Under the pieces are notes generated by a model. That model was not told where the DNA came from. It did not search any database and saw only the letters and a list, made by a program, of their open reading frames with translations. From Actinomycetota bacterium (GTDB taxonomy: Bacteria > Actinomycetota > Geothermincolia > Fen-727 > Anoxymicrobiaceae), in contig JAFGMY010000156.1 of the NCBI GenBank assembly GCA_016927325.1, positions 36,415 to 100,414 on the forward strand: 64,000 nt of DNA, given 5' to 3'. The translations under genes were made by a program, and so were the position numbers. The number at the start of each line of letters is the position of its first letter. The first letter of the stretch is position 1. Below are positions 4,173-54,181 of the stretch, piece after piece.

Positions 4173-4820
4173 ATGGGGGTCACCACGGGTACGGTTGCCA
4201 ATAACAGTGACAGAAATCATTTGAACCCTGTCAGGCTGGAAAAGGGTCTTGTCAAAGATGCCGTTAATTCTTTGTGCGGGGCGTTCGGTGATTACCCGCT
4301 AGTAAAACAGTTCTTTCCGCAAAGAGAGCGCCGGGAAAGGTTTATCCGTTATTTCGTTTCGGTGCCCCTGTACTATGGAATGAAGTATGGTGAGGTCTAC
4401 GCAACATCACGCAAGGTGGAAGGGATCGCCGTGTGGATACCCTCACAGAAACATCCAATGTCTTCGGCAAGAGTAGCCCGCGCCGTCCCGTTTAACGTGT
4501 TGGTGGGATTCGGTTTCTCCGGTGCCTCAGGGATGAGAGGAGTGGACCGCTTTATTAACGAAGTTCATGAAAGGCTGGTGCCTTATGATCACTGGTTTTT
4601 GCAGATGATAGGCGTAGATCCGTGTTGCCAGGGAAAAGGATACTCCAGTATACTGCTGAAACCGATGCTTTCAAGGATAGATGAAGAGAGGCTGCCCTGC
4701 TACCTGGAAACCAACACTGAAGAGAACGTTGAAATCTACCGGCATTTTGGGTTCGAGGTTCTGGAAGAGTCGATTATTCCAGGAACCGATGTGAAGAATT
4801 GGGCAATGCTGAGAGGTTGA
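4173..4820 (+). CDS. GNAT family N-acetyltransferase
   Basis: 215 aa; acetyl-CoA binding motif region (QMIGVDPCCQGKGYSSILL) typical of GNAT motif A; start may be downstream of the first ATG. Confidence 0.7.
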   Translation: MGVTTGTVANNSDRNHLNPVRLEKGLVKDAVNSLCGAFGDYPLVKQFFPQRERRERFIRYFVSVPLYYGMKYGEVYATSRKVEGIAVWIPSQKHPMSSARVARAVPFNVLVGFGFSGASGMRGVDRFINEVHERLVPYDHWFLQMIGVDPCCQGKGYSSILLKPMLSRIDEERLPCYLETNTEENVEIYRHFGFEVLEESIIPGTDVKNWAMLRG

Positions 4821-7909: not shown

Positions 7910-10102
7910 TCAATGATCCGCTTCTTCGTGAGTTGGAACCGTAAAAGAAAAAGACGAACCTTTTCCGAACTCACTCTCCGCCCATATCTGGCCGCCATGC
8001 GCCTCAATGATAGCTTTTGAGATGGACAGCCCGAGACCGGTACCACCCTGTGCGGTCTCAACGCATTCTCCTTTTGTAAACAGCGTGAATATTGAATCAA
8101 TCTGTTCCGATGGAATTCCGGAGCCGGTATCCGATATGGTAATTTTGATCTGGTCGTTTTCCAGATTCTGGGCGATTATATGCAGCCCTCCGGAAGAAGT
8201 GTATTTTATGGAGTTGCTTATGAGGTTGAAAAGTACCTGGGAAAGTCTGCCAAGGTCGGCATTCACGTGTTTCAGGTTCGGCAGGCAGTCCACCGTTACG
8301 GTAAGCCCCTTTTCATTGATCGCGCTTTCGAGCATTGAGAGTATGTTATCAATCAGCATCCTGGTATTTATCGGCTTCTTGTCCAGCGTCACAAGGCCTG
8401 CGTACATACCGGCAAGATCGATGAGGTTGTTTGCCAGGTAGGAGAGCCGGTCAATCGAAAGCGAGAGGATGTCAAGGGACCTGTTCTGGTCGTCATCGAG
8501 CGATTCCCTGGCACGGCGGGTCAGAAGCTCGAAACCAAGCTTCAGGGACGTAAGGGGCGTTCTCAGTTCGTGGGCCGCAACCCTTATAAAATCCAGCCTC
8601 GCTTTTTCCAGCTTCTTTATATCGGTAAGGTCGCTGATTACTCCAACGATAAACTCGGCTTCGCCCGATTCATTTTTTAACGGTGTTTTTAAGGTCCTGA
8701 TCGTGTGCCGGGCACCCTGCTTATCCAAAAATACCCGTTCGTCGGAGTAGACCAGTTCGCTGTTTTCAAGCACTACAGAGTCGTTTTCAGAAAGTATGCC
8801 GGAGAGCCTGGAGGGAAATATTTCAACATCTTCCTTTCCGATAATCTCGTCTTCGGAGTATCCAAGAAGCCTTGTCAGGGCGTCGTTGACGAAAGTGAAT
8901 TTCAGCTCACGGTCTTTAATAAAAACAGGTTCAGCAAGGTTATCGATAACGCTTTCAAGAAAATCACTCAACTCCTTCAGTTCTTCATGCGATTTCTTCA
9001 GGATAATACTGCGGTCGCGCTCCTCTTCGACTTGAGCGGTGACAACTTTTATCTCCTGTTCCGCCTGAATCAGGCGCAAGGCTTCCCTCATGTCGTGGGC
9101 TACCACAACAGCTCCGATTTCCCTGCCGGAACGCTTCTTTACGTCGCCGCGGCTTCTGGTTACAGGGATCAGCTCCCCTTCCTTGCTTACAAGGAAGCTC
9201 CACTTGGAGCTTTCGTCTTTTTTCTGTTCGAGATCCGGATGACCCGAGCCGGGTGGCCTGTCTACAAATAGCCTGCTCACCGGTGTGCCGATCAATTCGC
9301 CTTTCAAGTATCCCGAAAGCTTTTCCGCGACCGGATTAGCGTTATCGATAATGCCTGCAGGGTCGGCGATGAATACCGCGTCGTTTATATTTGAAATTAT
9401 TGCACCGCCCATTACTCCCGCAACGGTTGTAAGGAGGTCATACCTCGTGACAGCGAAGGCGATAACCACCGCCATCCCTATTGTGCCGACGAATGAGATT
9501 ACCGGCATGGACACCCCGAATGCAGGAAGTATTACGCTTGAGATCAGCTCGGAAGTTATTGGCAGAAGACCGGCGATGATCATGTAGACCAGCAGGTTCT
9601 TTTTTCTTTTTATGCCTGTTCTGAAATAGCTGAGCACCATTATTGTCAGGCCCGCGACAACGCAGAAAGAAACAAAAAGTTTGGAAGGAATCCGAAGCAG
9701 GCCTTCAATTTCTTTGTACTCCCACCCCGATTTGTAAAAACCTTTGAACATGAGTTCAGTTGTCCAGGTTAATATGACAAGAGCAACACTTATTGCGTAC
9801 ATGCAGAGCAGCACGGGCACTTTGAACCTGTTGTTGAAGTCCACGAATTCGGTCATTATATGAAAAACCAAAGGCCCCAGGAGACACCATCCGATAGCCG
9901 CGAATTCAGCGCCGAACGTTGCGGCCTGCTCTGTTGTCGCGACGCGCATTAATAACTCACCCGTTCTCCAGGCCGCAAAAGAAAACATGGCGAGAAAGAA
10001 AAGTTGGTTAACCCTGAATCCTGGTTCCCGGGATAATATGTACAGGCCCAGTGAAACGGTTATAAACAGACTGATTGCCGACAATATGGCATAAGTACTC
10101 AC
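7910..10102 (-). CDS. sensor histidine kinase with N-terminal 6-7 TM sensor region, PAS domains, HisKA and HATPase_c; no cognate response regulator nearby
   Basis: 730 aa; H-box AAHELRTPLTSL, N box NLISNSIKYT, G1 DTGSGIP, G2 GGTGLGLSISK; multi-TM N-terminus; GTG start. Confidence 0.85.
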   Translation of the reverse strand: MSTYAILSAISLFITVSLGLYILSREPGFRVNQLFFLAMFSFAAWRTGELLMRVATTEQAATFGAEFAAIGWCLLGPLVFHIMTEFVDFNNRFKVPVLLCMYAISVALVILTWTTELMFKGFYKSGWEYKEIEGLLRIPSKLFVSFCVVAGLTIMVLSYFRTGIKRKKNLLVYMIIAGLLPITSELISSVILPAFGVSMPVISFVGTIGMAVVIAFAVTRYDLLTTVAGVMGGAIISNINDAVFIADPAGIIDNANPVAEKLSGYLKGELIGTPVSRLFVDRPPGSGHPDLEQKKDESSKWSFLVSKEGELIPVTRSRGDVKKRSGREIGAVVVAHDMREALRLIQAEQEIKVVTAQVEEERDRSIILKKSHEELKELSDFLESVIDNLAEPVFIKDRELKFTFVNDALTRLLGYSEDEIIGKEDVEIFPSRLSGILSENDSVVLENSELVYSDERVFLDKQGARHTIRTLKTPLKNESGEAEFIVGVISDLTDIKKLEKARLDFIRVAAHELRTPLTSLKLGFELLTRRARESLDDDQNRSLDILSLSIDRLSYLANNLIDLAGMYAGLVTLDKKPINTRMLIDNILSMLESAINEKGLTVTVDCLPNLKHVNADLGRLSQVLFNLISNSIKYTSSGGLHIIAQNLENDQIKITISDTGSGIPSEQIDSIFTLFTKGECVETAQGGTGLGLSISKAIIEAHGGQIWAESEFGKGSSFSFTVPTHEEADH

Positions 10103-10428: not shown

Positions 10429-11517
10429 TCAGGTACCGTCTGGGTCGGAGCAGTTATCGTATGATGTTGCTTTGCCTGACTTTTTTCTGCGCTTTCCGCG
10501 CGGTTTGCTCTTCCTGGCGGAGTATTTGATGTATATGAATACGGCCACCGCGAGCAGCAGGAGTCCGGCGATAAGGAATATTACCGGCACCCATTTTCTT
10601 GCGAAATCAAGGGTGGCGGCATGTTTTGCCGCAAGGTCTACCGTTTCCCTGATACTTTCCCCGGTTCGTTTGTAGTCTAGAGATGCGACTTCAACAAGGT
10701 TGTCTTGTTCTCCCTGGAGAGCGGTGTTTACATAATACGTCCGGTTATAGACAGGGGTATCGACCATTATCCCGGTTGTTGGCTCAAAAGCGGTTATCGA
10801 AGAAATAGTAGTATAGTATGCAACGGGCAACTGCTGATCGTCCGTTACCGGGAGGCCTGGATTCGACGTCAGTCTCTTAAGCATCGCGCCCGATATTTCA
10901 GTAGGGAAGCCGAGAGGAGAGCCGACTATTTTCTCGGAATCCACTGTTATGTCAAAAAGATAAACCCTGACGTCCTTGTAATCTTCCCCGTCCCTTGTTT
11001 CCTCCTTCACAAATTGCAGTCTTATAACGTCAACGGTTTCGTTGTCCCAGCTTTCAAAAACTCCAGGCTTGAGGTCGAATGGAATGAGGTAGCCCTTTCG
11101 CTCCTGGTCGCTTGCTTCTCCAATTACGTTTTGCCCGGTTTTCCTGTCCATGTCGTAAATATGCTTTATCGTAGCCAGATTCTGGCCTGTTCTGGACTTG
11201 AGTTCTATGACCTCGTCAATGGCAATAACATCAGCACTGCTTTTTCCGGGAATGCTTTTCAGTGTCCATGACAAGGTTATCGGTAGCGAGATTTCCTGGT
11301 TTAACGCGTAGGGGTTGAAAGACGCGGGGTCGACATTCAGAAGGAGAGTACCTTCAAATTGCATCGTGAATTCGATATCGTCATTAACTCTAATAAAACC
11401 GGGGAGTATCACCTTGCTCCATATCGGAGCCATTGCAATCAGGAGGATACCTATTGTCACCAGGGCGATTATCAGTACTTTGGTCTTCTTCTTCAATTTC
11501 TCATTCTCAATTCTCAA
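10429..11517 (-). CDS. hypothetical bitopic membrane protein (N- and C-terminal TM anchors, large extracytoplasmic domain; DUF3068-like architecture)
   Basis: 362 aa; N-terminal TM (VLIIALVTIGILLIAMAPIW), C-terminal TM (WVPVIFLIAGLLLLAVAVFIYI) followed by a Lys/Arg-rich tail; the DUF3068 assignment is from recall of topology and size only. Confidence 0.4.
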   Translation of the reverse strand: MRIENEKLKKKTKVLIIALVTIGILLIAMAPIWSKVILPGFIRVNDDIEFTMQFEGTLLLNVDPASFNPYALNQEISLPITLSWTLKSIPGKSSADVIAIDEVIELKSRTGQNLATIKHIYDMDRKTGQNVIGEASDQERKGYLIPFDLKPGVFESWDNETVDVIRLQFVKEETRDGEDYKDVRVYLFDITVDSEKIVGSPLGFPTEISGAMLKRLTSNPGLPVTDDQQLPVAYYTTISSITAFEPTTGIMVDTPVYNRTYYVNTALQGEQDNLVEVASLDYKRTGESIRETVDLAAKHAATLDFARKWVPVIFLIAGLLLLAVAVFIYIKYSARKSKPRGKRRKKSGKATSYDNCSDPDGT

Positions 11518-11750
11518 CTCAGGCCATCGAAAAAAACGATAGTGACGAAATAACCAAACGACACCACTTCAGTAAGGTTTTCTATTAAAGTAGAACCTGT
11601 CCTCTGACATGTGCGTCATTTAAAACCCTCAATATTATTTCGGCAATATTGCTTACTTACTTGTGGTAAATAAATTACGGAAGGTATCTACGGGTGTTTA
11701 TTGGTAAAATATACAACTGCATTACATTAATCGGTGAACAAACAACAAGG

Positions 11751-12470
11751 ATGCGCAAGATGGCTGAAAAAGCAGTGGATGAGAACAGGCAGAAGCTGGA
11801 GGCCCTGTTTGAGATCAGCAAAGCGCTTACGTCGGATACATACCTGGATGACATACTGAAATTAATCGTGGTTGTCACCGCCAAGGTGATGGACTCAAAC
11901 ATCTGTTCGCTTATGCTTCTTAACAGTGACACCCAGGAACTCGAGATCAGGGCGACACAATCGGTAAGCGATCTCTACCTGAAGAAGCCCAGGATAAAGC
12001 TGGGGGAGGGCGTTAGCGGAATAGTCGCCAAAGAAAACAGGGTGATTGTCTGCAGGGATGTCAAGAAAGACCCGCTTTACCTCAATAAGGAAGTGGCAAA
12101 AAAGGAGAACTTGTGTTCCCTGCTCAGCATGCCCTTGAGCCTGAAGGGAAAGGTGCTCGGGGTGATCAACTGCTATACCTCGGAGGAGCACGAGTTCACG
12201 CAGGAAGAAAAGGACGTGCTGTCCATGGTTGCAAATCAGGCGGCGTTGACGATTGAGAACACGGACCTTGCCGTCAGGATGAAGTTGATCGAGGAAGAAC
12301 TGGAGACCAGAAAGATAATCGAAAGGGCCAAGGACATCCTCATGGACGAACGAGGGGTCAGCGGGCACGAGGCGTTTCAGGCGATTAGGCGCAAATCGAT
12401 GGATGCCAGGAAACCGATCAGGGATGTGGCCGAAGCAATAATACTGGCGAGTGAGGTCGGCGGCAACTGA
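11751..12470 (+). CDS. GAF-ANTAR RNA-binding antitermination regulator
   Basis: GAF domain (ICSLMLLNSDTQELEIRATQ ... GEGVSGIVA) followed by ANTAR (ETRKIIERAKDILMDERGVSGHEAFQAIRRKSMDARKPIRDVAEAII); in-frame alternative starts at 11694 (GTG) and 11760. Confidence 0.8.
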   Translation: MRKMAEKAVDENRQKLEALFEISKALTSDTYLDDILKLIVVVTAKVMDSNICSLMLLNSDTQELEIRATQSVSDLYLKKPRIKLGEGVSGIVAKENRVIVCRDVKKDPLYLNKEVAKKENLCSLLSMPLSLKGKVLGVINCYTSEEHEFTQEEKDVLSMVANQAALTIENTDLAVRMKLIEEELETRKIIERAKDILMDERGVSGHEAFQAIRRKSMDARKPIRDVAEAIILASEVGGN

Positions 12471-12520
12471 TTTTCATCACTGTACTTGACTGAGAATCGG
12501 CCTTCTCATATTATTCACAA

Positions 12521-12600
12521 AACGTACAACGGTGTACGGTTACCGACTATGGTGTCAAACAGGAGACAAAGGCGTCATGCTTTGGTCTCTTTTTTTTATT
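12521..12600 (+). promoter_or_regulatory. 5' leader of the NuoEF operon: candidate ANTAR target (hexaloop hairpin CGTAC-AACGGT-GTACG, second weak hairpin TGTC..GACA) overlapping an intrinsic terminator
   Basis: Hairpin 12523-12538 has a 6-nt loop with A at position 1 and G at position 4, matching the ANTAR hexaloop motif; the GACA of hairpin 2 (12565-12568) is part of the 5' arm of the terminator. Confidence 0.45.
12562..12598 (+). terminator. Rho-independent terminator in the leader immediately upstream of the NuoEF start
   Basis: Stem GAGACAAAG / CTTTGGTCTC (one bulge), loop GCGTCATG, followed by T-run TCTTTTTTTTATT; ends 15 nt before the 12614 ATG. Confidence 0.7.
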
Positions 12601-12613
12601 TAGAAAGGATATC

Positions 12614-14968
12614 ATGGAAGAACTGGAATCCACGGGAATCAAGGCTTTTGTTGAAGACGCAGTTTCAAGGAATGAGTTCGACAAGAGTCGAATTCACGCG
12701 ATTCTTCAAGAGGTCCAGGAGCGTTTCAACTTTTTGCCAGAGCAGGCTCTAATTGATATTGCTTCATCCCTGCAGATGCCCCTTGTTGATATTTATTCAG
12801 TTGCTACGTTTTTTAAATCATACTCGATGGAGCCAAAAGGAAAGCACATTGTCACTGTATGCATGGGGACGGCATGCCATGTCAGAAACTCGGACGGATT
12901 GCTTAAAGAGATATGCAGATATCTTGACGTGGAACCCGGGGGAACCACCGGAGACGGCTTGTTTACGGTGGAATCCGTGAACTGTCTCGGCGCTTGCGCG
13001 ATAGGCCCGGTTATTGTGGTCGACGGTAAGTACTATGGTGATATGAATGCGGCAAAAGTGAATAAAGTCTTGCAGAAATATCAGAAAGCAGCCTCTGTTG
13101 ATGTCGCCATATCGAAATTTAGAAGTCCGGGGGATCTTGAGGAATATCGAATTAAGATTAGGGAACTGCGATATCCCGATACCGTGAGTGTTTCTCTCTG
13201 TTCGGGTACGGGATGCAAGGCAAGCGGCAGCAATGAAGTGTATGAAGCTCTCGAGTCCGAACTGAAGCGAAGCGGGCAAAGCGAAAAAGTAATGCTTCGG
13301 AGGACCGGTTGCCGTGGATTCTGCGAAAGAGGACCGCTGCTGGTAATAAACCCCGCAAATGTGCTTTATCAAAAGGTGAGGCCGGAAGATGTTCGGGAAA
13401 TAGTCAAATGCACGATACAAGACGGCGAGATTGTGGAACGATTGCTGTATGAAGATCCGGTAGTGGGGGGGAAAGTAATAAGCGAGGACGAGATTCGTTT
13501 TTACAAAAAACAGGATAGAAAGATATTGGGCACAAACGGTGATATTGACCCGTTGAATATTGACGATTATATAGCGATTGGAGGGTACCGTTCGCTGAAG
13601 AAAGCTCTCTTGGAGTTTGAGCCGGTGCAGATAATCGAGGAAGTTGAGAGAGCCGGTTTAAGGGGCAGAGGAGGAGGTGGTTTCCCTGCCGCGCAGAAGT
13701 GGAAATCCTGCAGAGCCGCAAACTCGGTGGATGGGGTCAAGTATGTACTGTGTAATGCAGACGAAGGAGACCCCGGAGCATTTATGGACCGGTCACTTCT
13801 CGAAGGGAACCCCCATTCCGTGCTTGAGGGGATGATAGTCGGCGCAAAAGCGATCGGCGCCAATTCGGGTTACATATATGTAAGGAACGAATATCCACTG
13901 GCGGTTGAGAGCGTAACAAGGGCTATTGAGGACGCCGAAGATAAGGGCCTGCTGGGTGAAAATATTCTAGGTTCCGGATTCGATTTCAAGGTTGGAGTAA
14001 GCAGGGGCGGCGGAGCTTTTGTATGCGGCGAATCGACCGCCTTGATGGCGTCCATAGAAGGAAAAATCGGGGAGCCGCGCGAGAAGTACGTTCACACCGC
14101 TATAAAAGGTCTCCATGTAAGGCCTACGAACCTGAACAATGTTGAAACCTGGGCTAATGTGCCGCTTATTATCAATGAGGGCGCGGAAGCTTATGCAAAA
14201 ACGGGCACCAAAAACAGCACGGGCACTAAAATATTTTCCCTGGTTGGAAAGATCAACAATACAGGGCTTGTCGAAGTACCAATGGGCATCACACTAAGGG
14301 AAATCATTTTTGATATCGGTGGCGGCATTCCCAACGGCAAAAAATTCAAGGCGGTTCAGACGGGGGGTCCTTCAGGCGGATGCATACCGGAATCCCTGAT
14401 AGATATCGCGGTTGATTTTGACCGGTTGACCGAAGTCGGCTCGATGATGGGATCGGGCGGGATGATAGTGATGGATGAAGACACCTGCATGGTGGATGTG
14501 GCAAAGTATTTCCTGAATTTCCTTACCGATGAATCATGCGGCAAGTGTACTCCCTGCAGGGAAGGGCTGAAGCATATGTTGGAGATAGTAACCGATATAA
14601 CCGAGGGAAACGGCTCTGACGAGAAGCTGGAGCTTCTTCTGGAGCTGGCCGAGGTTGTAAGGGACACATCGCTTTGCGGGCTTGGACAGACGGCGCCTAA
14701 TCCGGTCCTGTCGACCATAAAATATTTTGAAGATGAGTACCGGGAACATATACATGAAAAGAAGTGCAGGGCTGGTGTATGCAAGGCGTTGATCGAGTAC
14801 AGCATAGACGGTGAAGCGTGCACCGGATGCACCCGTTGCGCCAGAGAGTGTCCGGTGTTTGCGATAAGTGGAGACAAGAAAGAGCCGCACGAGATAGATC
14901 CGGCGAAATGCGACAAATGCGGTATCTGCTACGAAGTGTGCGAATTTGGTGCGGTCATAAGGAAGTGA
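12614..14968 (+). CDS. NADH-binding flavoprotein: fused NuoE-like (24 kDa, [2Fe-2S]) + Trx-like [2Fe-2S] domain + NuoF-like (51 kDa, FMN/NADH, [4Fe-4S]) + C-terminal 2x[4Fe-4S] ferredoxin domain (HydC/HydB- or BfuC/BfuB-like)
   Basis: 784 aa; NuoE Cys (VCMGTACHVRN ... VNCLGACAIGP); second Trx-like cluster (CSGTGCKASG ... GCRGFCERGP); FMN loop GRGGGGFPAAQKW; [4Fe-4S] ESCGKCTPCREG; C-terminal CTGCTRCARECP ... CDKCGICYEVC. Confidence 0.85.
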   Translation: MEELESTGIKAFVEDAVSRNEFDKSRIHAILQEVQERFNFLPEQALIDIASSLQMPLVDIYSVATFFKSYSMEPKGKHIVTVCMGTACHVRNSDGLLKEICRYLDVEPGGTTGDGLFTVESVNCLGACAIGPVIVVDGKYYGDMNAAKVNKVLQKYQKAASVDVAISKFRSPGDLEEYRIKIRELRYPDTVSVSLCSGTGCKASGSNEVYEALESELKRSGQSEKVMLRRTGCRGFCERGPLLVINPANVLYQKVRPEDVREIVKCTIQDGEIVERLLYEDPVVGGKVISEDEIRFYKKQDRKILGTNGDIDPLNIDDYIAIGGYRSLKKALLEFEPVQIIEEVERAGLRGRGGGGFPAAQKWKSCRAANSVDGVKYVLCNADEGDPGAFMDRSLLEGNPHSVLEGMIVGAKAIGANSGYIYVRNEYPLAVESVTRAIEDAEDKGLLGENILGSGFDFKVGVSRGGGAFVCGESTALMASIEGKIGEPREKYVHTAIKGLHVRPTNLNNVETWANVPLIINEGAEAYAKTGTKNSTGTKIFSLVGKINNTGLVEVPMGITLREIIFDIGGGIPNGKKFKAVQTGGPSGGCIPESLIDIAVDFDRLTEVGSMMGSGGMIVMDEDTCMVDVAKYFLNFLTDESCGKCTPCREGLKHMLEIVTDITEGNGSDEKLELLLELAEVVRDTSLCGLGQTAPNPVLSTIKYFEDEYREHIHEKKCRAGVCKALIEYSIDGEACTGCTRCARECPVFAISGDKKEPHEIDPAKCDKCGICYEVCEFGAVIRK

Positions 14969-14972
14969 TCAT

Positions 14973-15596
14973 GTGGTTAAGCTCATAATCGACGGTCAGC
15001 ACATAGAGGTGGAGGATGGCCTGACCGTTCTTGAGGCGGCAAAGCGGTATGGAATCGACATCCCAACGTTGTGTCACGATGAGGGATTGTCCGAGTACGG
15101 CGCATGCAGGATATGCATGGTAGAACTTAAAAAAGGTGAACGGTCGAGTCTCGTGGCATCGTGTTGTTTCCCGGTCCGGGACGGTATTGAGATATTGACT
15201 GATTCGCTGAGGGTGCAGAAGGCTAGAAAAATGATAATCGAACTGATGCTCGCGTCCTGTCCGAATTCCAGGACGCTCCAGTGCCTTGCCTCAAAGTACG
15301 GTGTAACCAGGGTGAGGTTCAAGAGCGAGGACAGGGGATGCCTGCTGTGCGGCCTTTGCGTACGAATGTGTGAACAGCAGATGAAGGGTGGAGCGATCGG
15401 CTTCGCAGGCCGTGGGGTCGGCCGGGAAGTAGCAATGCCGTTCCATCATGCGCCCGCAGAGTGCCGTGAATGCGGTGCGTGCTTATATATATGCCCGGTG
15501 TGCGAGTTGCCGTGTTGCGGGCCGCTTCAACCCGGTGAACTCTGTAATTCGTGCTTCGAAAATATCAGGATAGAACCATTCCCGTGCAGGGAATAA
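14973..15596 (+). CDS. NuoG/HydA N-terminal-like Fe-S electron-transfer protein ([2Fe-2S] plus [4Fe-4S] domains only; no catalytic domain)
   Basis: 207 aa; [2Fe-2S] motif CHDEGLSEYGACRICMVE, then Cys clusters (CLLCGLCVRMCE; CRECGACLYICPVC); GTG start overlaps upstream stop. Confidence 0.7.
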   Translation: MVKLIIDGQHIEVEDGLTVLEAAKRYGIDIPTLCHDEGLSEYGACRICMVELKKGERSSLVASCCFPVRDGIEILTDSLRVQKARKMIIELMLASCPNSRTLQCLASKYGVTRVRFKSEDRGCLLCGLCVRMCEQQMKGGAIGFAGRGVGREVAMPFHHAPAECRECGACLYICPVCELPCCGPLQPGELCNSCFENIRIEPFPCRE

Positions 15597-15617
15597 TAAA
15601 AGGAGGATAAGCCAGAG

Positions 15618-17198
15618 ATGTCAATTACCAAGATAAACAGGTCGGCAGCGACGCTATCAAAAAACAGAACGCCGGATAGCGTCAGCCCGTTCAGCGGTAT
15701 GTGCGCAACTTGCGTTGAGGGCTGTATAGGAATGTGCGAAATCGGAAAATCCTCGATAAGGGGAGCGGAGTGCATTTATCCTCAACCGTTTGGCATTATG
15801 ACCGCGGCATCGGAAAAGGATTATCCCGTAGATTTTTCTCATTTCAACATCATGGGCAGCGCGGTTGGGGCATACGGGGTTCCCGCAGACAGCGAACACG
15901 CGATTTTTACAAATGTGGATCTGGAGACTACCGTAGGTGACAAAAACCCTATCAAGCTCAAGCTGCCGTTCGTTGTGCCCGGGCTGGGCTCAACCATGGT
16001 AGCCAAAAGAAACTGGGACGGGCTGGCGGTAGGGACCGCGATTTCAGGCACGCTGTTGACGATCGGGGAGAACGTCTGCGGAATGGATGACGAGTCCATT
16101 ATTGAGAATGGAAGGATAAAGAAGTCCCCGGACATGGAAAACCGCATTAATACCTACAGGAAATGGCAGTTGGACGGTTACGGAGATATCGTGGTCCAGT
16201 TCAACGTTGAAGATACCAACCTGGGTGTGCCCGAGTACGTCCTTCAGGACCTGGGCGTGGAGACCGTGGAGCTCAAATGGGGCCAGGGGGCGAAGGATAT
16301 CGGTGGCGAGGTCAAGCTCAAGAAAATTGAAAAAGCCGTTGAGATGAAGAAGAAGGGTTATATTGTTCTTCCTGACCCCGAGGACCCGGAGTCGGTTGAG
16401 GCTTATAAAGTCGGGGGTATAAAAGAGTTTGAGAGGCACTCAAGGCTGGGAATGGTAACGGAAGAAGGATTCAGCCGGAGTGTCGAGAAGCTGCGCGGCC
16501 TGGGAGCCAGGAGGGTATTTCTGAAGACCGGTGCTTACAGGCCGGCCGATCTGGCCAGAGCCGTCAAGTTCGCTTCAGACAACCGGATAGATATGCTGAC
16601 CGTCGACGGCGCGGGCGGCGGCACCGGCATGAGTCCCTGGCGCATGATGAACGAGTGGGGAATACCGACAATTGAGCTTTGCAGTCTTACCTATGAGTAC
16701 ATAGACTACCTTGCCAGGCAGGGTAAGTATGTTCCCTCGGTTGTGTTCGCCGGTGGAATAACCATGGAAGACCAGATAATCAAGGCTTTTGCGCTGGGTG
16801 CTCCTTACGTAAAAGGGGTTGGGATGGCAAGAAGCTCTCTTGCGGCGGCGATGGTCGGCAAGACTATAGGTGGAATTGTGGAAGAGAAAAACCTGCCTGT
16901 TTATATTGAGCGGCACGGAACTACCCTGGAAGAGATATTCGTGACCGGTGTCCATCTGAAAGACACCTACGGAGAGGACTTTACCAGGAAGCACCCCGGC
17001 GGAGTTGGAGTTTATACATACTACCAGAGGCTGGCGCAGGGCATGAGGCAGTTTATGTGCGGGGCAAGGAAGTTCGCATTCGAGCATGTGGCCAGAAATG
17101 ATATTGTCGCTTTGACAAAGGAGGCCGCTGAAGTGTCCGGGATAACTTATGTAATGGAACTGGACAAAGATGAAGCCTGGGACATTATCAAGGGATAG
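15618..17198 (+). CDS. FMN-binding glutamate-synthase-family oxidoreductase (GltB central FMN domain-like, stand-alone) with N-terminal CxxCxxxCxxxC motif
   Basis: 526 aa; N-terminal MCATCVEGCIGMCE; TIM-barrel FMN domain signature (VDGAGGGTGMSPW, VVFAGGITMEDQIIKAFALGA); RBS AAAGGAGGA. Confidence 0.7.
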   Translation: MSITKINRSAATLSKNRTPDSVSPFSGMCATCVEGCIGMCEIGKSSIRGAECIYPQPFGIMTAASEKDYPVDFSHFNIMGSAVGAYGVPADSEHAIFTNVDLETTVGDKNPIKLKLPFVVPGLGSTMVAKRNWDGLAVGTAISGTLLTIGENVCGMDDESIIENGRIKKSPDMENRINTYRKWQLDGYGDIVVQFNVEDTNLGVPEYVLQDLGVETVELKWGQGAKDIGGEVKLKKIEKAVEMKKKGYIVLPDPEDPESVEAYKVGGIKEFERHSRLGMVTEEGFSRSVEKLRGLGARRVFLKTGAYRPADLARAVKFASDNRIDMLTVDGAGGGTGMSPWRMMNEWGIPTIELCSLTYEYIDYLARQGKYVPSVVFAGGITMEDQIIKAFALGAPYVKGVGMARSSLAAAMVGKTIGGIVEEKNLPVYIERHGTTLEEIFVTGVHLKDTYGEDFTRKHPGGVGVYTYYQRLAQGMRQFMCGARKFAFEHVARNDIVALTKEAAEVSGITYVMELDKDEAWDIIKG

Positions 17199-25958: not shown

Positions 25959-28250
25959 GTGAGTGGCGCCCTGTTTATATTCTGCCTGCTGGTACTCTCT
26001 ACTGGTATTCTGCTGGGCAGATTCGCGGGGCCTGCGCTGATCGCAGCGACTATTATTCTGCCGGTCCTTTTGTATTTATACGCGGCACGGGCCGGAATCG
26101 ACTGCAAAAGAATCATCTTAATCGCTGTTCTATTTCTGGCTTGCGGCTCAATTATTTCTTCGTTCTCGTTCCAGGGTATGCGCAAAGCAGTTATCGGTGC
26201 TGTTATCGAGGACGGCAGTGAAGTTAGAGTAACGGGAACCGTGAAGTCGGAGCCTTATTTTACCGGTAATCGGGTGTCTTTTATTTTACAGTGCGAGCGT
26301 ATCGAGACGGAACGAAGGCAGTGGCGTTCATCCGAGCGCCTTAATGTTATGTCAAAAGCAGATGAGAATAACAGCAAGTTATTTCCAGGGATAAAAGTTA
26401 CCGTTGCGGGAAAAGTCTTGTATGAAAAAGAGAGTCCCGATTGGCTCGAGATCAGGGGAGCTGTAGCTGAAATTGACGCCGAAAGGGGATCTGTCTCGGT
26501 AACAGGTGGCGCGAACCTTGTCTCGAGGTGCATTGAGGGCATGAGCAAATGGCTGAATGATGGCATCGATTCGGTTTTTGGAGAAAGTGTCGCCGGTCTG
26601 GTCAAAGGTTATTCAATCGGCTCAAAAACTGATATTGACGGCGGTACACTTGACGACCTCGATAAATGCGGACTGTCACATATTGTGGCTGTTTCCGGAC
26701 TTCACATAGGGACAACCGCCCTGATTATTACCTGGCTGGTAAGTTTTGCGGGTTTCAGCAGAAGATCGGGGATAATAACGGCGGTTATTGTCGCTATATT
26801 AATAGTATCGATCTCGGGATTCAGGCCTTCGGCTGTCCGGTCGGCAATAATGGTTTTCGCGGCATTCGGCGGGGTGCTGGCGGGAAGGCGTTTCAATGGT
26901 TATTCCGGGCTGGGCATCGCAGGGATTGCAATACTGGGGTTGAATCCAAGAGCTCTTTTTGACCCTGGATTTCAATACTCGTTTGCAGCCGTCCTGGGAA
27001 TACTCACGGTAATCGGCAAGTTGCCTCCATATACATTTCCAAAACGCCTGACCGCTGTCTGGGCGGGAGCACAGGCCGGGCTGCTGCCGGTGTTGATAGC
27101 TCACTCAAAACAGGTTCCACTGGTGTCATTGCCGGCCAATATAGCGGTAGTACCTTTTCTAGGCCCAGCCGTACTCCTCAGCATATTGGCCGCGGGTGTT
27201 TCACATTTATCAGTTCACGCCGGCAAGTTGATTGCGTCGGCGCCTTCGCTTTATACACGGTTTGTAATACTGATTTCGAAAAGTTTCTCGGCGTTTCCCG
27301 AAGCGGCCTTTTCAAGGTTGCTTCCAGGCATTTCACTGCTAATTTTCGGATTTTCGCTCTACACAATGGTGTCAAAGCTTAAGAGGGGAGAAAGCATTAT
27401 GAAAGCATGCATTCTTATAATCTGCGCACTGCTCGTACTGGTGCTTCCCGGTTTTTTCTTATTCGGGCCCGGTGGCGGTAACCGGATAATCTTTTTTGAT
27501 GTCGGCCAGGGTGACTCGATACTGATACAGGATGAATCCGGGAAAACAGTCCTTGTCGATGGTGGGCCTGAAAGTGAAATAATAGTTGATAAGTTGAGAA
27601 TAAACGGCATCAGGAAACTTGACCTGGTAATATTGACCCATCCTCACCAGGACCATTCAGCCGGCCTTGTCGGCGTATTGAAGGAGTTCCCGGTCGGCCG
27701 GATACTTGTGCCGGGTGTTGAAGAAGAGCTACCCGGGAGTTGGGCCGATTTTACCCGTGAAGCCGTTAAGAACGGGATAATAAAAACGGTTGCCGAAGCA
27801 GGCCAGTGTATTGAGATATCGCCGGAGTGCAAGTTGAACGTGCTTTACCCTCTAGAGTCAACGGTATTTCATAAGGATGACTTGAATAATGGTTCAATCG
27901 TGATACTGTGCGAGCTTGAAGGTGTCAGGACGCTTTTAATGGGCGATCTGGAGATCGAAGGGCAGAAATTATTGATGAACCGTGACAGTGAACTGGACTG
28001 TGACGTATTGAAGGTTCCCCATCAGGGTTCCAGAGATGCTGCCTCAAAGGAATTTATTGATTGCTGCCGACCTGAACTGGCTGTGATATCGGTCGGAGAG
28101 GGCAACGAGTACGGGCATCCTTCAAAAATATTCACAGGCATGCTCCGAAGTGAAGGTGTAAAAACGTTTCGCACTGATAAAATGGGCGATATAGTAATGT
28201 CAATAGAGGAAGACGTGATTTCTGTTCAAACTGGCCGGAGTGGATTATGA
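25959..28250 (+). CDS. comEC: DNA internalisation competence protein ComEC/Rec2 (polytopic membrane domain + metallo-beta-lactamase domain)
   Basis: 763 aa; many TM helices; C-terminal MBL motif LTHPHQDHSAG; GTG start 1 nt after comEA stop. Confidence 0.85.
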   Translation: MSGALFIFCLLVLSTGILLGRFAGPALIAATIILPVLLYLYAARAGIDCKRIILIAVLFLACGSIISSFSFQGMRKAVIGAVIEDGSEVRVTGTVKSEPYFTGNRVSFILQCERIETERRQWRSSERLNVMSKADENNSKLFPGIKVTVAGKVLYEKESPDWLEIRGAVAEIDAERGSVSVTGGANLVSRCIEGMSKWLNDGIDSVFGESVAGLVKGYSIGSKTDIDGGTLDDLDKCGLSHIVAVSGLHIGTTALIITWLVSFAGFSRRSGIITAVIVAILIVSISGFRPSAVRSAIMVFAAFGGVLAGRRFNGYSGLGIAGIAILGLNPRALFDPGFQYSFAAVLGILTVIGKLPPYTFPKRLTAVWAGAQAGLLPVLIAHSKQVPLVSLPANIAVVPFLGPAVLLSILAAGVSHLSVHAGKLIASAPSLYTRFVILISKSFSAFPEAAFSRLLPGISLLIFGFSLYTMVSKLKRGESIMKACILIICALLVLVLPGFFLFGPGGGNRIIFFDVGQGDSILIQDESGKTVLVDGGPESEIIVDKLRINGIRKLDLVILTHPHQDHSAGLVGVLKEFPVGRILVPGVEEELPGSWADFTREAVKNGIIKTVAEAGQCIEISPECKLNVLYPLESTVFHKDDLNNGSIVILCELEGVRTLLMGDLEIEGQKLLMNRDSELDCDVLKVPHQGSRDAASKEFIDCCRPELAVISVGEGNEYGHPSKIFTGMLRSEGVKTFRTDKMGDIVMSIEEDVISVQTGRSGL

Positions 28251-52858: not shown

Positions 52859-54181
52859 ATGATTCCAAATTCCTACATTATCCATACTTTCGGCTGTCAG
52901 ATGAACAAGCACGATTCCGAGCATATCGCCGGAGTGCTCGAGGATAGTGGGTACTCCCGCGCACCGACAGACGAAGAGGCTGAAATAATAATAATGAACA
53001 CCTGTTCTGTCCGGAAAAGCGCGGAAGATAAAGTCTGGGGAAGGCTGAGTTGTTTTGCCGGTGGAGTCCCTCCTCCGAAAATAGTCGCGGTAGGCGGCTG
53101 CATGGCCCAATTGCTGGGCGAAAGCATAATCGACCGTTCCCCCGGCGTGAGACTCGTGTTTGGTATCGGTTCGATGGACCGGTTGCCCGGCCTTATAGAA
53201 AAAAGCAGGGAGAACCCTGTTTGCGACCTCGGCGACATAAACAAAGCTTTCGTTGATTGCCTCCCGTATATTCCAGAGAGTCCCGTCTCCGCATGGGTTC
53301 CGGTAAATCATGGATGTGACAACAGTTGTTCGTACTGTATTGTGCCGGCCGCCAGGGGGAACGCAAGGAGCCGGGATCTTGATGATATCCTGCGTGAAGT
53401 GGAGAAAGCGGCGGGGTCCGGACGTATTGAAGTGATACTGCTGGGTCAGAATGTAAACGCTTACGGAAAGGACCTGTTTCCGCGGGTGCGTTTTTCACAG
53501 TTGCTTGATGCCGTATCGGGAGTGCAGGGCATTCAACGGATAAAATTCGAAACATCCCATCCCGCGGATATGGACGAATCCATAATCGAGGTGATGGCTG
53601 GAAGAGCCAATTTATGCGAGTATCTGCATCTCCCGGCCCAGTCGGGTTCCAACAGAGTGCTCAAAGCGATGAACCGTGGTTACACCAGGGAGGATTATCT
53701 TGAGGAAGTGCGTTTTTCCAGGAAAATAATTCCAGAGATTTCTCTTTCCACGGATATAATCGTTGGATTTCCCGGGGAGACGGACCAGGATTTTCGAGAC
53801 ACGTTTACTCTGCTGGAAGAGGTGCGGTTCAGCAACGCGTTTATCTTCAAGTATTCAAGAAGGGACGGGACGGCCGCCGCGGCAATGCGAAACGAGGTTC
53901 CCACCCGGGTAGTTTCAAACAGGTTCATGTTACTATCTGAGTTGCAGGATAAAATAACCTCCGAAGCGCTTAGGGAGCTCGAGGGAAAGACAGTTGAAGT
54001 TCTTGTGGGAGGTTCGGCTAAGAGAGGTGGCTTTCGCAAGGGGCGCGCAAGGGGCAACCAGGTTGTTCTGTTAAGTTCGGCGCAAGAGCTCGTTGAGGGA
54101 ACACTGGTCATGGCAAGAGTTACCGGAACCGGAAAGCATACCGCTCGCGGCGAGGTAGTGGAAACAATAACGAAGGCCTGA
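52859..54181 (+). CDS. miaB: tRNA-2-methylthio-N6-dimethylallyladenosine synthase MiaB
   Basis: 440 aa; MTTase Cys (FGCQMN ... NTCSV ... GGCMAQ), radical-SAM CDNSCSYCIVP, C-terminal TRAM domain. Confidence 0.85.
   Translation: MIPNSYIIHTFGCQMNKHDSEHIAGVLEDSGYSRAPTDEEAEIIIMNTCSVRKSAEDKVWGRLSCFAGGVPPPKIVAVGGCMAQLLGESIIDRSPGVRLVFGIGSMDRLPGLIEKSRENPVCDLGDINKAFVDCLPYIPESPVSAWVPVNHGCDNSCSYCIVPAARGNARSRDLDDILREVEKAAGSGRIEVILLGQNVNAYGKDLFPRVRFSQLLDAVSGVQGIQRIKFETSHPADMDESIIEVMAGRANLCEYLHLPAQSGSNRVLKAMNRGYTREDYLEEVRFSRKIIPEISLSTDIIVGFPGETDQDFRDTFTLLEEVRFSNAFIFKYSRRDGTAAAAMRNEVPTRVVSNRFMLLSELQDKITSEALRELEGKTVEVLVGGSAKRGGFRKGRARGNQVVLLSSAQELVEGTLVMARVTGTGKHTARGEVVETITKA

Follow-up and report, generated by a model that had tools for sequence, protein, structure and literature searches.

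Introduction

Does the short gap between a GAF-ANTAR regulator gene and the operon behind it encode an RNA target for that regulator? The locus lies in a 64-kb stretch of DNA, all of which was analysed and which is called the window below. A first-pass annotation had placed a 143-nt gap between the GAF-ANTAR gene and the NuoEF start, and this gap is present in the sequence. It had also read the gap as an ANTAR-type leader controlled by the adjacent protein, on the strength of two hairpins and a terminator, and had called the match partial.

The general features of ANTAR target RNAs are known from earlier work. The motif has stems of at least 3 bp and hexaloops with A at position 1 (A1) and G at position 4 (G4), its second hairpin, P2, overlaps a terminator, and in eutP the closing pairs are AC/GU (PMC3369931). 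In the EutV-RNA structure, G4 makes the only base-specific contact (PMC8934654). Ramesh et al. 2012 defined this motif and showed both that it overlaps terminators and that it is associated with nitrogen genes; their Tables S1/S2 predict sites in front of genes for glutamine synthetase and glutamate synthase in Desulfotomaculum, Carboxydothermus and others (PMC3369931). A mycobacterial study describes that 2012 search as having found no actinobacterial targets, and reports that mycobacterial ANTAR targets act mainly on translation (bioRxiv 10.1101/660928). As of 2020, no GAF-ANTAR protein had been characterised (PMC7496416), and full-text literature searches found no characterised member of this class after 2020.

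Results

The regulator and the operon

The gene upstream of the gap encodes an N-terminal GAF domain and a C-terminal ANTAR domain (PF03861) in one polypeptide, according to Pfam (GAF_2, 4e-19; ANTAR, 1.6e-18, the latter above the gathering score). Its likely start, ATG 11760, follows AAGGA; in-frame alternatives lie at 11751 and 11694, and the gene ends with TGA 12468-12470. Counted from the start at 11694, residues 51-188 belong to GAF_2 and residues 200-250 to ANTAR. The GAF domain is closest to the N-terminal GAF domains of NifA (TIGR01817, 5e-17) and PtsP (2.7e-16), and the PDB sequence matches are to the GAF domains 3e0y, 3trc and 4g3k and the ANTAR proteins 1s8n, 4akk and 6wsh. The GAF domains of NifA and PtsP respond to 2-oxoglutarate and glutamine. 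Because the regulator combines a GAF domain of this type with a nitrogen regulon (see below), a nitrogen-status metabolite is the leading candidate for its signal, a proposal that we make tentatively.

Homologues of the regulator are numerous (2724 at E<=1e-10), and the closest are found in Actinomycetota MAGs (Geothermincolia/Anoxymicrobiaceae). The family, at about 53-87% identity, extends over Actinomycetota, Omnitrophota, Desantisbacteria, Aerophobetes, Planctomycetota, Thermodesulfobacteriota, Clostridia and Atribacterota, and its genes very often adjoin a gene for a GltS-like FMN-domain protein. In the window, the ANTAR protein is encoded immediately upstream of the leader. The three genes at 12614-17198, assigned by Pfam and NCBIfam, also follow the regulator in L001, L002, L081, L082, L085 and L093. 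The GltS FMN-domain protein has no NCBIfam match, and no gene with a glutamine-amidotransferase domain adjoins the operon, whose product may be an NADH-linked GOGAT-like or an ammonia-dependent enzyme complex. Upstream of the regulator, a 7TM-PAS histidine kinase gene (7910-10102) and a PorA-like porin gene (10429-11517) lie divergently on the minus strand, a synteny kept in L093 and L094.

Table 1. Features of the regulator, the leader and the operon, in window positions
Feature	Position	Strand	Description
GAF-ANTAR one-component regulator gene	11760-12470	+	236 aa from ATG 11760
Intergenic gap	12471-12613		143 nt; GAF-ANTAR stop (12468-12470) to NuoE/F ATG (12614)
Sigma-70-like promoter TTGACT-N17-TATTAT	12486-12514	+	10/12 match; inside the gap
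P1 hairpin CGUAC-AACGGU-GUACG	12523-12538	+	5 bp; hexaloop with A1 and G4; AC/GU closing pairs
Middle hairpin Pm GAC-UAUGGU-GUC	12545-12556	+	3 bp; hexaloop with U1 and G4; AC/GU closing pairs
P2 hairpin GAC-AAAGGC-GUC	12565-12576	+	3 bp; hexaloop with A1 and G4; putative antiterminator element
Intrinsic terminator	12561-12597	+	stem-loop 12561-12591 (core 12563-12589); U8 12590-12597
RBS AAAGGA and ATG of first operon gene	12604-12609; 12614-12616	+	
NuoE/F fusion gene	12614-14968	+	784 aa; first gene of the predicted regulated operon
2Fe-2S/4Fe-4S HoxU/NuoG-N-like protein gene	14973-15596	+	predicted regulated operon
GltS FMN-domain protein gene	15618-17198	+	526 aa; predicted regulated operon

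Anatomy of the leader

The promoter in the gap is conserved in the related loci L093 and L095. Because this promoter-like site sits within the gap, the transcribed leader is probably ~93 nt long, not 143 nt, and the transcript probably starts at ~12521, ~2 nt 5' of P1. A similar arrangement is found in related loci, where 30 of 44 sites of the covariance model described below show a sigma-70-like promoter whose end lies 6-27 nt upstream of P1 (background for such promoters, 3.3% of random 70-nt windows). At the other end of the leader, the RBS and the ATG of the NuoE/F gene are clear of all leader hairpins. Control at the level of translation, which is the mycobacterial mode, was rejected because neither element is overlapped. 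Mycobacterial targets mostly overlap the RBS or start codon (bioRxiv 10.1101/660928), whereas the hairpins here lie at least 38 nt 5' of the ATG and overlap a terminator.

P1 is present exactly as the first-pass annotation had given it, with A1 and G4 in its loop. Its stem, 12523-12527 paired with 12534-12538, has a pairing probability of 0.99 in the free RNA fold. In the minimum-free-energy fold, an additional A12528-U12533 pair would turn the loop into a tetraloop. The P1 loop of L095 is AACGAA as against AACGGU in the window, so that A1 and G4 are kept while positions 5-6 are changed, and the hexaloop is therefore favoured. The tetraloop was rejected because L095 has A at loop position 6; in addition, loop positions 1 and 6 show no covariation in the family. 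More generally, A1 and G4 are kept in both L093 and L095 while other loop positions differ.

P2 is formed by 12565-12567 pairing with 12574-12576. Its 12-mer, GACAAAGGCGUC, is unique within the window and recurs with its hexaloop, identical or nearly identical and in the same place, in many phyla, including distant ones; it is identical in L028, L055, L061, L062 and L077. Both leader hairpins have stems of at least 3 bp (5 in P1, 3 in P2) and A1/G4 hexaloops. The match that had been called partial is thus complete in its stems, its loops and its terminator overlap, since the conserved P2 is a canonical hexaloop hairpin with A1 and G4.

Between P1 and P2 lies the middle hairpin Pm, 6 nt 3' of P1 and 8 nt 5' of P2, which is selected in the minimum-free-energy fold. 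The three close relatives share its stem without change and have U, A or C at loop position 3, while the six bases preceding it are almost wholly different and the flanking linker varies. Pm has U, not A, at loop position 1. Arrays of at least three hairpins also occur in L032 and L072.

Competition between P2 and the terminator

The intrinsic terminator of the first-pass annotation is also borne out, as a stable stem followed by T8. In its stem (12561-12591, AGGAGAC.AAGGC-GUCAU-GCUUU.GUCUCUU), 12561-12567 and 12569-12573 are paired with 12579-12583 and 12585-12591, leaving two single-base bulges. The structure has the features of an intrinsic terminator, a stable G+C-containing hairpin with a U tract directly after it. 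Its folding energy is -13.5 kcal/mol (z = -3.8), none of 200 shuffles folds as well, its pair probability in the free RNA is ~1.0, and it is conserved in L093 and L095. A simple terminator scan missed it owing to the two bulges. The lone call of that scan, on the reverse strand of P1, was rejected as an artefact of a palindromic hairpin beside an A-rich run.

Folding of the free leader yields P1 together with the terminator. Of the P2 hairpin, the terminator takes up 12565-12567 in the 5' arm and 12569-12573 in the loop. P2 and the terminator are mutually exclusive because both need 12565-12573, and the overlap is of the kind that defines ANTAR targets. On its own, P2 contributes no more than -2.2 kcal/mol, and its ensemble probability is 0. 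It therefore would need protein to form, and since the terminator dominates the free RNA, P2 can win only if it is held by something, in line with the scheme already described for ANTAR targets (PMC3369931, PMC8934654).

The first-pass annotation had drawn the competing hairpin differently, pairing UGUC (12553-12556) with GACA (12565-12568) across an 8-nt loop. If P1 and this hairpin were the antiterminator, the leader would be a partial, non-canonical ANTAR site. The pairing itself is real: the 4-bp hairpin has a folding energy of -3.0 kcal/mol, RNA cut short ahead of the terminator's 3' arm adopts it in its minimum-free-energy fold, and L093 and L095 show no change in either of its arms. However, it has no counterpart in the wider family and its probability in the full-length ensemble is ~0. 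The covariance model places P2 at 12565-12576 and not at UGUC/GACA, the recurrence of the P2 12-mer with its hexaloop in distant phyla speaks against the UGUC/GACA geometry, and the conservation of GGUGUC is equally explained by Pm. This arrangement is therefore very improbable as the second ANTAR element, for which the conserved hairpin at 12565-12576 is preferred. What stands of the proposed antiterminator geometry is the competition between a hexaloop hairpin and the terminator; the partner assigned to GACA does not, as the true partner is the downstream GUC.

Covariance model and comparison across genomes

Single hairpins of the P1 type are common. The window holds 462 A1/G4 hexaloop hairpins with stems of at least 3 bp on its two strands, and 26 copies of the core AC-A..G..-GU were counted where 19 are expected. 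By itself, P1 is thus no evidence. Because one hexaloop hairpin is uninformative, the case has to be made from the elements in combination and by comparing genomes. For this comparison, ~95 loci in all were collected, comprising 80 from species-representative genomes, 12 from a metagenome scan with the single regulator protein, and those of the two closest relatives, whose proteins are 87% and 85% identical. A recurrent layout was found 3' of the regulator, consisting of a promoter, a gCAC-RANGNN-GUGc hairpin, a short linker and a GGAC-AANGNC-GUCC hairpin, of which the 3' half or the whole is part of an intrinsic terminator.

As a family-specific proxy for an ANTAR-target covariance model, a model named R1 was built from 18 dual-hairpin segments of other organisms, leaving out the window and two close relatives. 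In the seed alignment, 97% of the pair cells are standard pairs, compared with 26-49% in slid controls, and changes on both sides are seen in 7 of 10 pairs against 4.4 in shuffles; the seed hairpins were picked by eye, so that this covariation is partly selected and the matches outside the seed and in the window form the unbiased part. Searched with R1 on both strands and with filters off (128 kb), the window gave a sole significant match, 12523-12576 on the plus strand (21.9 bits, E ~0.006), with a runner-up at 10.5 bits (E 1.4), these E-values being rough because calibration was short. A loose pattern scan for two A1/G4 hexaloop hairpins and a terminator returned 4 candidates at 3 sites in the window, and only the 12523-12576 site scores with the covariance model. 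The other two, 26882-26955 and 53423-53488 (+), have no model score at E<=10 and are probably chance matches.

Among the 95 loci, R1 found 52 matches at E<=1, of which 51 are on the regulator's strand. The 27 matches outside the seed nearly all have an intrinsic terminator that starts inside P2. The P1 and P2 hairpins are thus conserved, with covarying stems, across phyla, and the terminator overlap occurs in independent loci. The genes 3' of the matches encode GltS-like proteins, NuoEF-FeS-GltS, P-II, Amt, GDH or the GAF-ANTAR protein itself, which ties the motif to this regulator family and to nitrogen assimilation. Nearer to the window, L093 and L095 keep the promoter, P1, a linker of 25-26 nt, P2 and the terminator, and their leader DNA is 84-87% identical to that of the window, as against 72-77% for the flanking coding DNA. 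The dual hairpin is conserved in homologous leaders, and the reading of an ANTAR-type leader controlled by the adjacent GAF-ANTAR protein has gained independent comparative support. Of the two results that the first-pass annotation had named as jointly refuting, absence of a covariance-model match and absence of a conserved dual hairpin from homologous leaders, neither was obtained with this proxy.

These data also bear on whether the terminator is an ordinary constitutive terminator or insulator, with the hexaloop hairpins there by chance and no regulated read-through. The abundance of single A1/G4 hexaloop hairpins in the window and the lack of enrichment of their AC-A..G..-GU core would fit such an explanation. 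However, a constitutive terminator downstream of the promoter would silence the operon. In addition, the order of promoter, P1, P2 and terminator is conserved across phyla with compensatory stem changes, and conservation is higher in the leader than in the flanking genes. We therefore give the explanation of a constitutive element very little credence.

In some loci, the dual hairpin and terminator lie upstream of the GAF-ANTAR gene, namely at 3877-3918 in L070, 3666-3706 and 3857-3899 in L060, 3801-3844 in L078, 3773-3813 in L036 and 2091-2129 in L043, where the regulator gene starts at ~4001 (2308 in L043). Such sites are common in Omnitrophota, Planctomycetota and Clostridia, where a short gap separates the regulator from the GltS gene that follows it. 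The arrangement resembles an autoregulated leader-regulator-GltS operon and differs from that in the window, in which the leader lies between the regulator and its target.

Spacing of the hairpins

In the window, 26 nt separate P1 from P2. The linker between the two hairpins measures 4-6 nt in relatives that carry the same operon (L001, L081, L082, L085) and 2-14 nt at most sites of the family. For EutV, antitermination is lost when the linker falls outside 5-12 nt or is extended by 20 nt (PMC3369931, PMC8934654), while the published search model for ANTAR targets used a 'variable linker' (PMC3369931). The 26-nt linker of the window therefore departs only from the eut-specific spacing. Unlike in eutP, an extra hexaloop hairpin lies between P1 and P2, and when Pm is counted the spacings of 6 and 8 nt replace the single long one. 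Pm might be an intermediate binding site or stepping-stone that restores the canonical spacing; the three sequences (n=3) behind this idea are only suggestive. With its intervening hexaloop, the 26-nt spacing is a natural case on which the 'successive binding' model of ANTAR proteins can be tested.

Discussion

We are fairly confident, from the sequence comparisons above, that the leader acts as an ANTAR-type attenuator served by the adjacent GAF-ANTAR protein. The long distance from P1 to P2, the short 3-bp stem of P2 and the U at loop position 1 of Pm count against this reading. It is another example of the known ANTAR dual-hexaloop attenuator of nitrogen-assimilation genes, and not a new mechanism. 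The lineage of the window, a deep-branching actinobacterial one, has a terminator-linked ANTAR site of the canonical kind, with an atypical three-hairpin spacing. In the mechanism that we propose, transcription would start at ~12521 at the sigma-70-like promoter inside the gap, and P1 would form first in the nascent RNA, followed by Pm. By default, the terminator hairpin with its U8 would then form, and transcription would stop before the NuoEF/FeS/GltS operon. An active GAF-ANTAR protein, its probable signal being a nitrogen-status metabolite perceived through the NifA/PtsP-like GAF domain, would bind the hexaloops. Binding would hold GAC-AAAGGC-GUC as P2, depriving the terminator of its 5' arm, and RNA polymerase would read into the operon.

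A real attenuator might also answer to another controller, either an ANTAR protein encoded elsewhere in the genome or a protein-independent switch based on metabolite sensing or transcription kinetics. ANTAR domains are thought to share RNA specificity (PMC7496416), and the window shows only 64 kb of the genome. Against a distant ANTAR protein, no second ANTAR domain was found within the window, and the RNA motif and the GAF-ANTAR family are tightly linked at ~45 independent sites. As for a protein-independent switch, a metabolite-binding fold would call for a larger and more complex leader, and Rfam gave no riboswitch match; cmscan of 11000-13500 (E<=10) gave only a chance RsmY match in the coding region, which carries no weight against membership in the ANTAR class. 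We consider control by something other than the adjacent GAF-ANTAR protein improbable.

The arrangement resembles several known systems. As in EutV/eutP of Enterococcus faecalis, there are two short A1/G4 hexaloop hairpins with AC...GU closing pairs, P2 is embedded in an intrinsic terminator, and an ANTAR protein is encoded at the locus. EutV, however, is a phosphorylated REC-ANTAR protein that serves ethanolamine utilisation, whereas the regulator here is a one-component GAF-ANTAR protein and the target a glutamate-synthase-like operon. NasR/nasF of Klebsiella and AmiR/amiE of Pseudomonas likewise use A1/G4 hexaloop antitermination at a leader terminator of nitrogen-related genes, which for the present leader is a prediction. 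NasR is, like the present regulator, a one-component sensor-ANTAR protein, but its sensor is a NIT domain for nitrate and AmiR is controlled by AmiC, while the sensor here is a NifA/PtsP-like GAF domain.

There is also a resemblance to the targets predicted by Ramesh et al. 2012, which have the same motif before the same kinds of genes (GS, GOGAT-like, Amt, P-II) and sites both before and after the ANTAR gene, as in our Omnitrophota and Clostridia loci. Their glutamate and glutamine gene targets are in Firmicutes, unlike the window, and the regulators are listed as 'ANTAR-containing response regulators'. One entry of their Table S1, a Desulfotomaculum reducens ANTAR gene at 3046903-3047565, is 663 nt long and flanked by predicted ANTAR sites and GS/GOGAT genes. 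Since 663 nt is also the length of GAF-ANTAR members of Clostridia (e.g. L023, 4001-4663), which is only a hint, this gene may belong to the present family, though listed as a 'response regulator'.

Within the Actinobacteria, the leader shares dual stem-loops with the mycobacterial ANTAR-target RNAs, and GAF-ANTAR is the commonest ANTAR architecture in the phylum (bioRxiv 10.1101/660928). The locus therefore provides a well-defined candidate pair of RNA target and regulator for this class. It also points to the classic terminator/antiterminator mode, not the mycobacterial translational mode, in a deep-branching lineage of the phylum. The ~93 nt that hold a canonical P2, the promoter and the terminator could be taken directly into assays of binding and in vitro transcription.

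Across the family, the regulon of GltS, GDH, Amt and P-II suggests that many candidate phyla without studied regulators control nitrogen through a simple circuit. A wider picture, which we hold with rather more doubt than conviction, is that the GAF-ANTAR family would be a widespread one-component sensor of nitrogen status whose GAF domain binds 2-oxoglutarate or glutamine. Hexaloop antiterminators would then govern its regulon (GOGAT-like, GDH, Amt, P-II and the regulator itself) in many uncultivated phyla, and a P1-Pm-P2 relay would replace the EutV spacing rule in the lineage of the window.

Two variations on the motif were seen in other loci. In Omnitrophota sites (L060, L070, L078, L072, L080 and others), the P1 loop has 7 nt, e.g. 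CAC-AAUGUUA-GUG, while the P2 hexaloop is kept; within the same protein family, these 7-nt loops are a systematic departure from the published hexaloop rule. In L015 (4785-4856) and L056 (~4730-4800), tandem terminators follow the regulator, each preceded by a hexaloop hairpin of the ACAAnGGCGU type, and these are serial attenuators in one leader.
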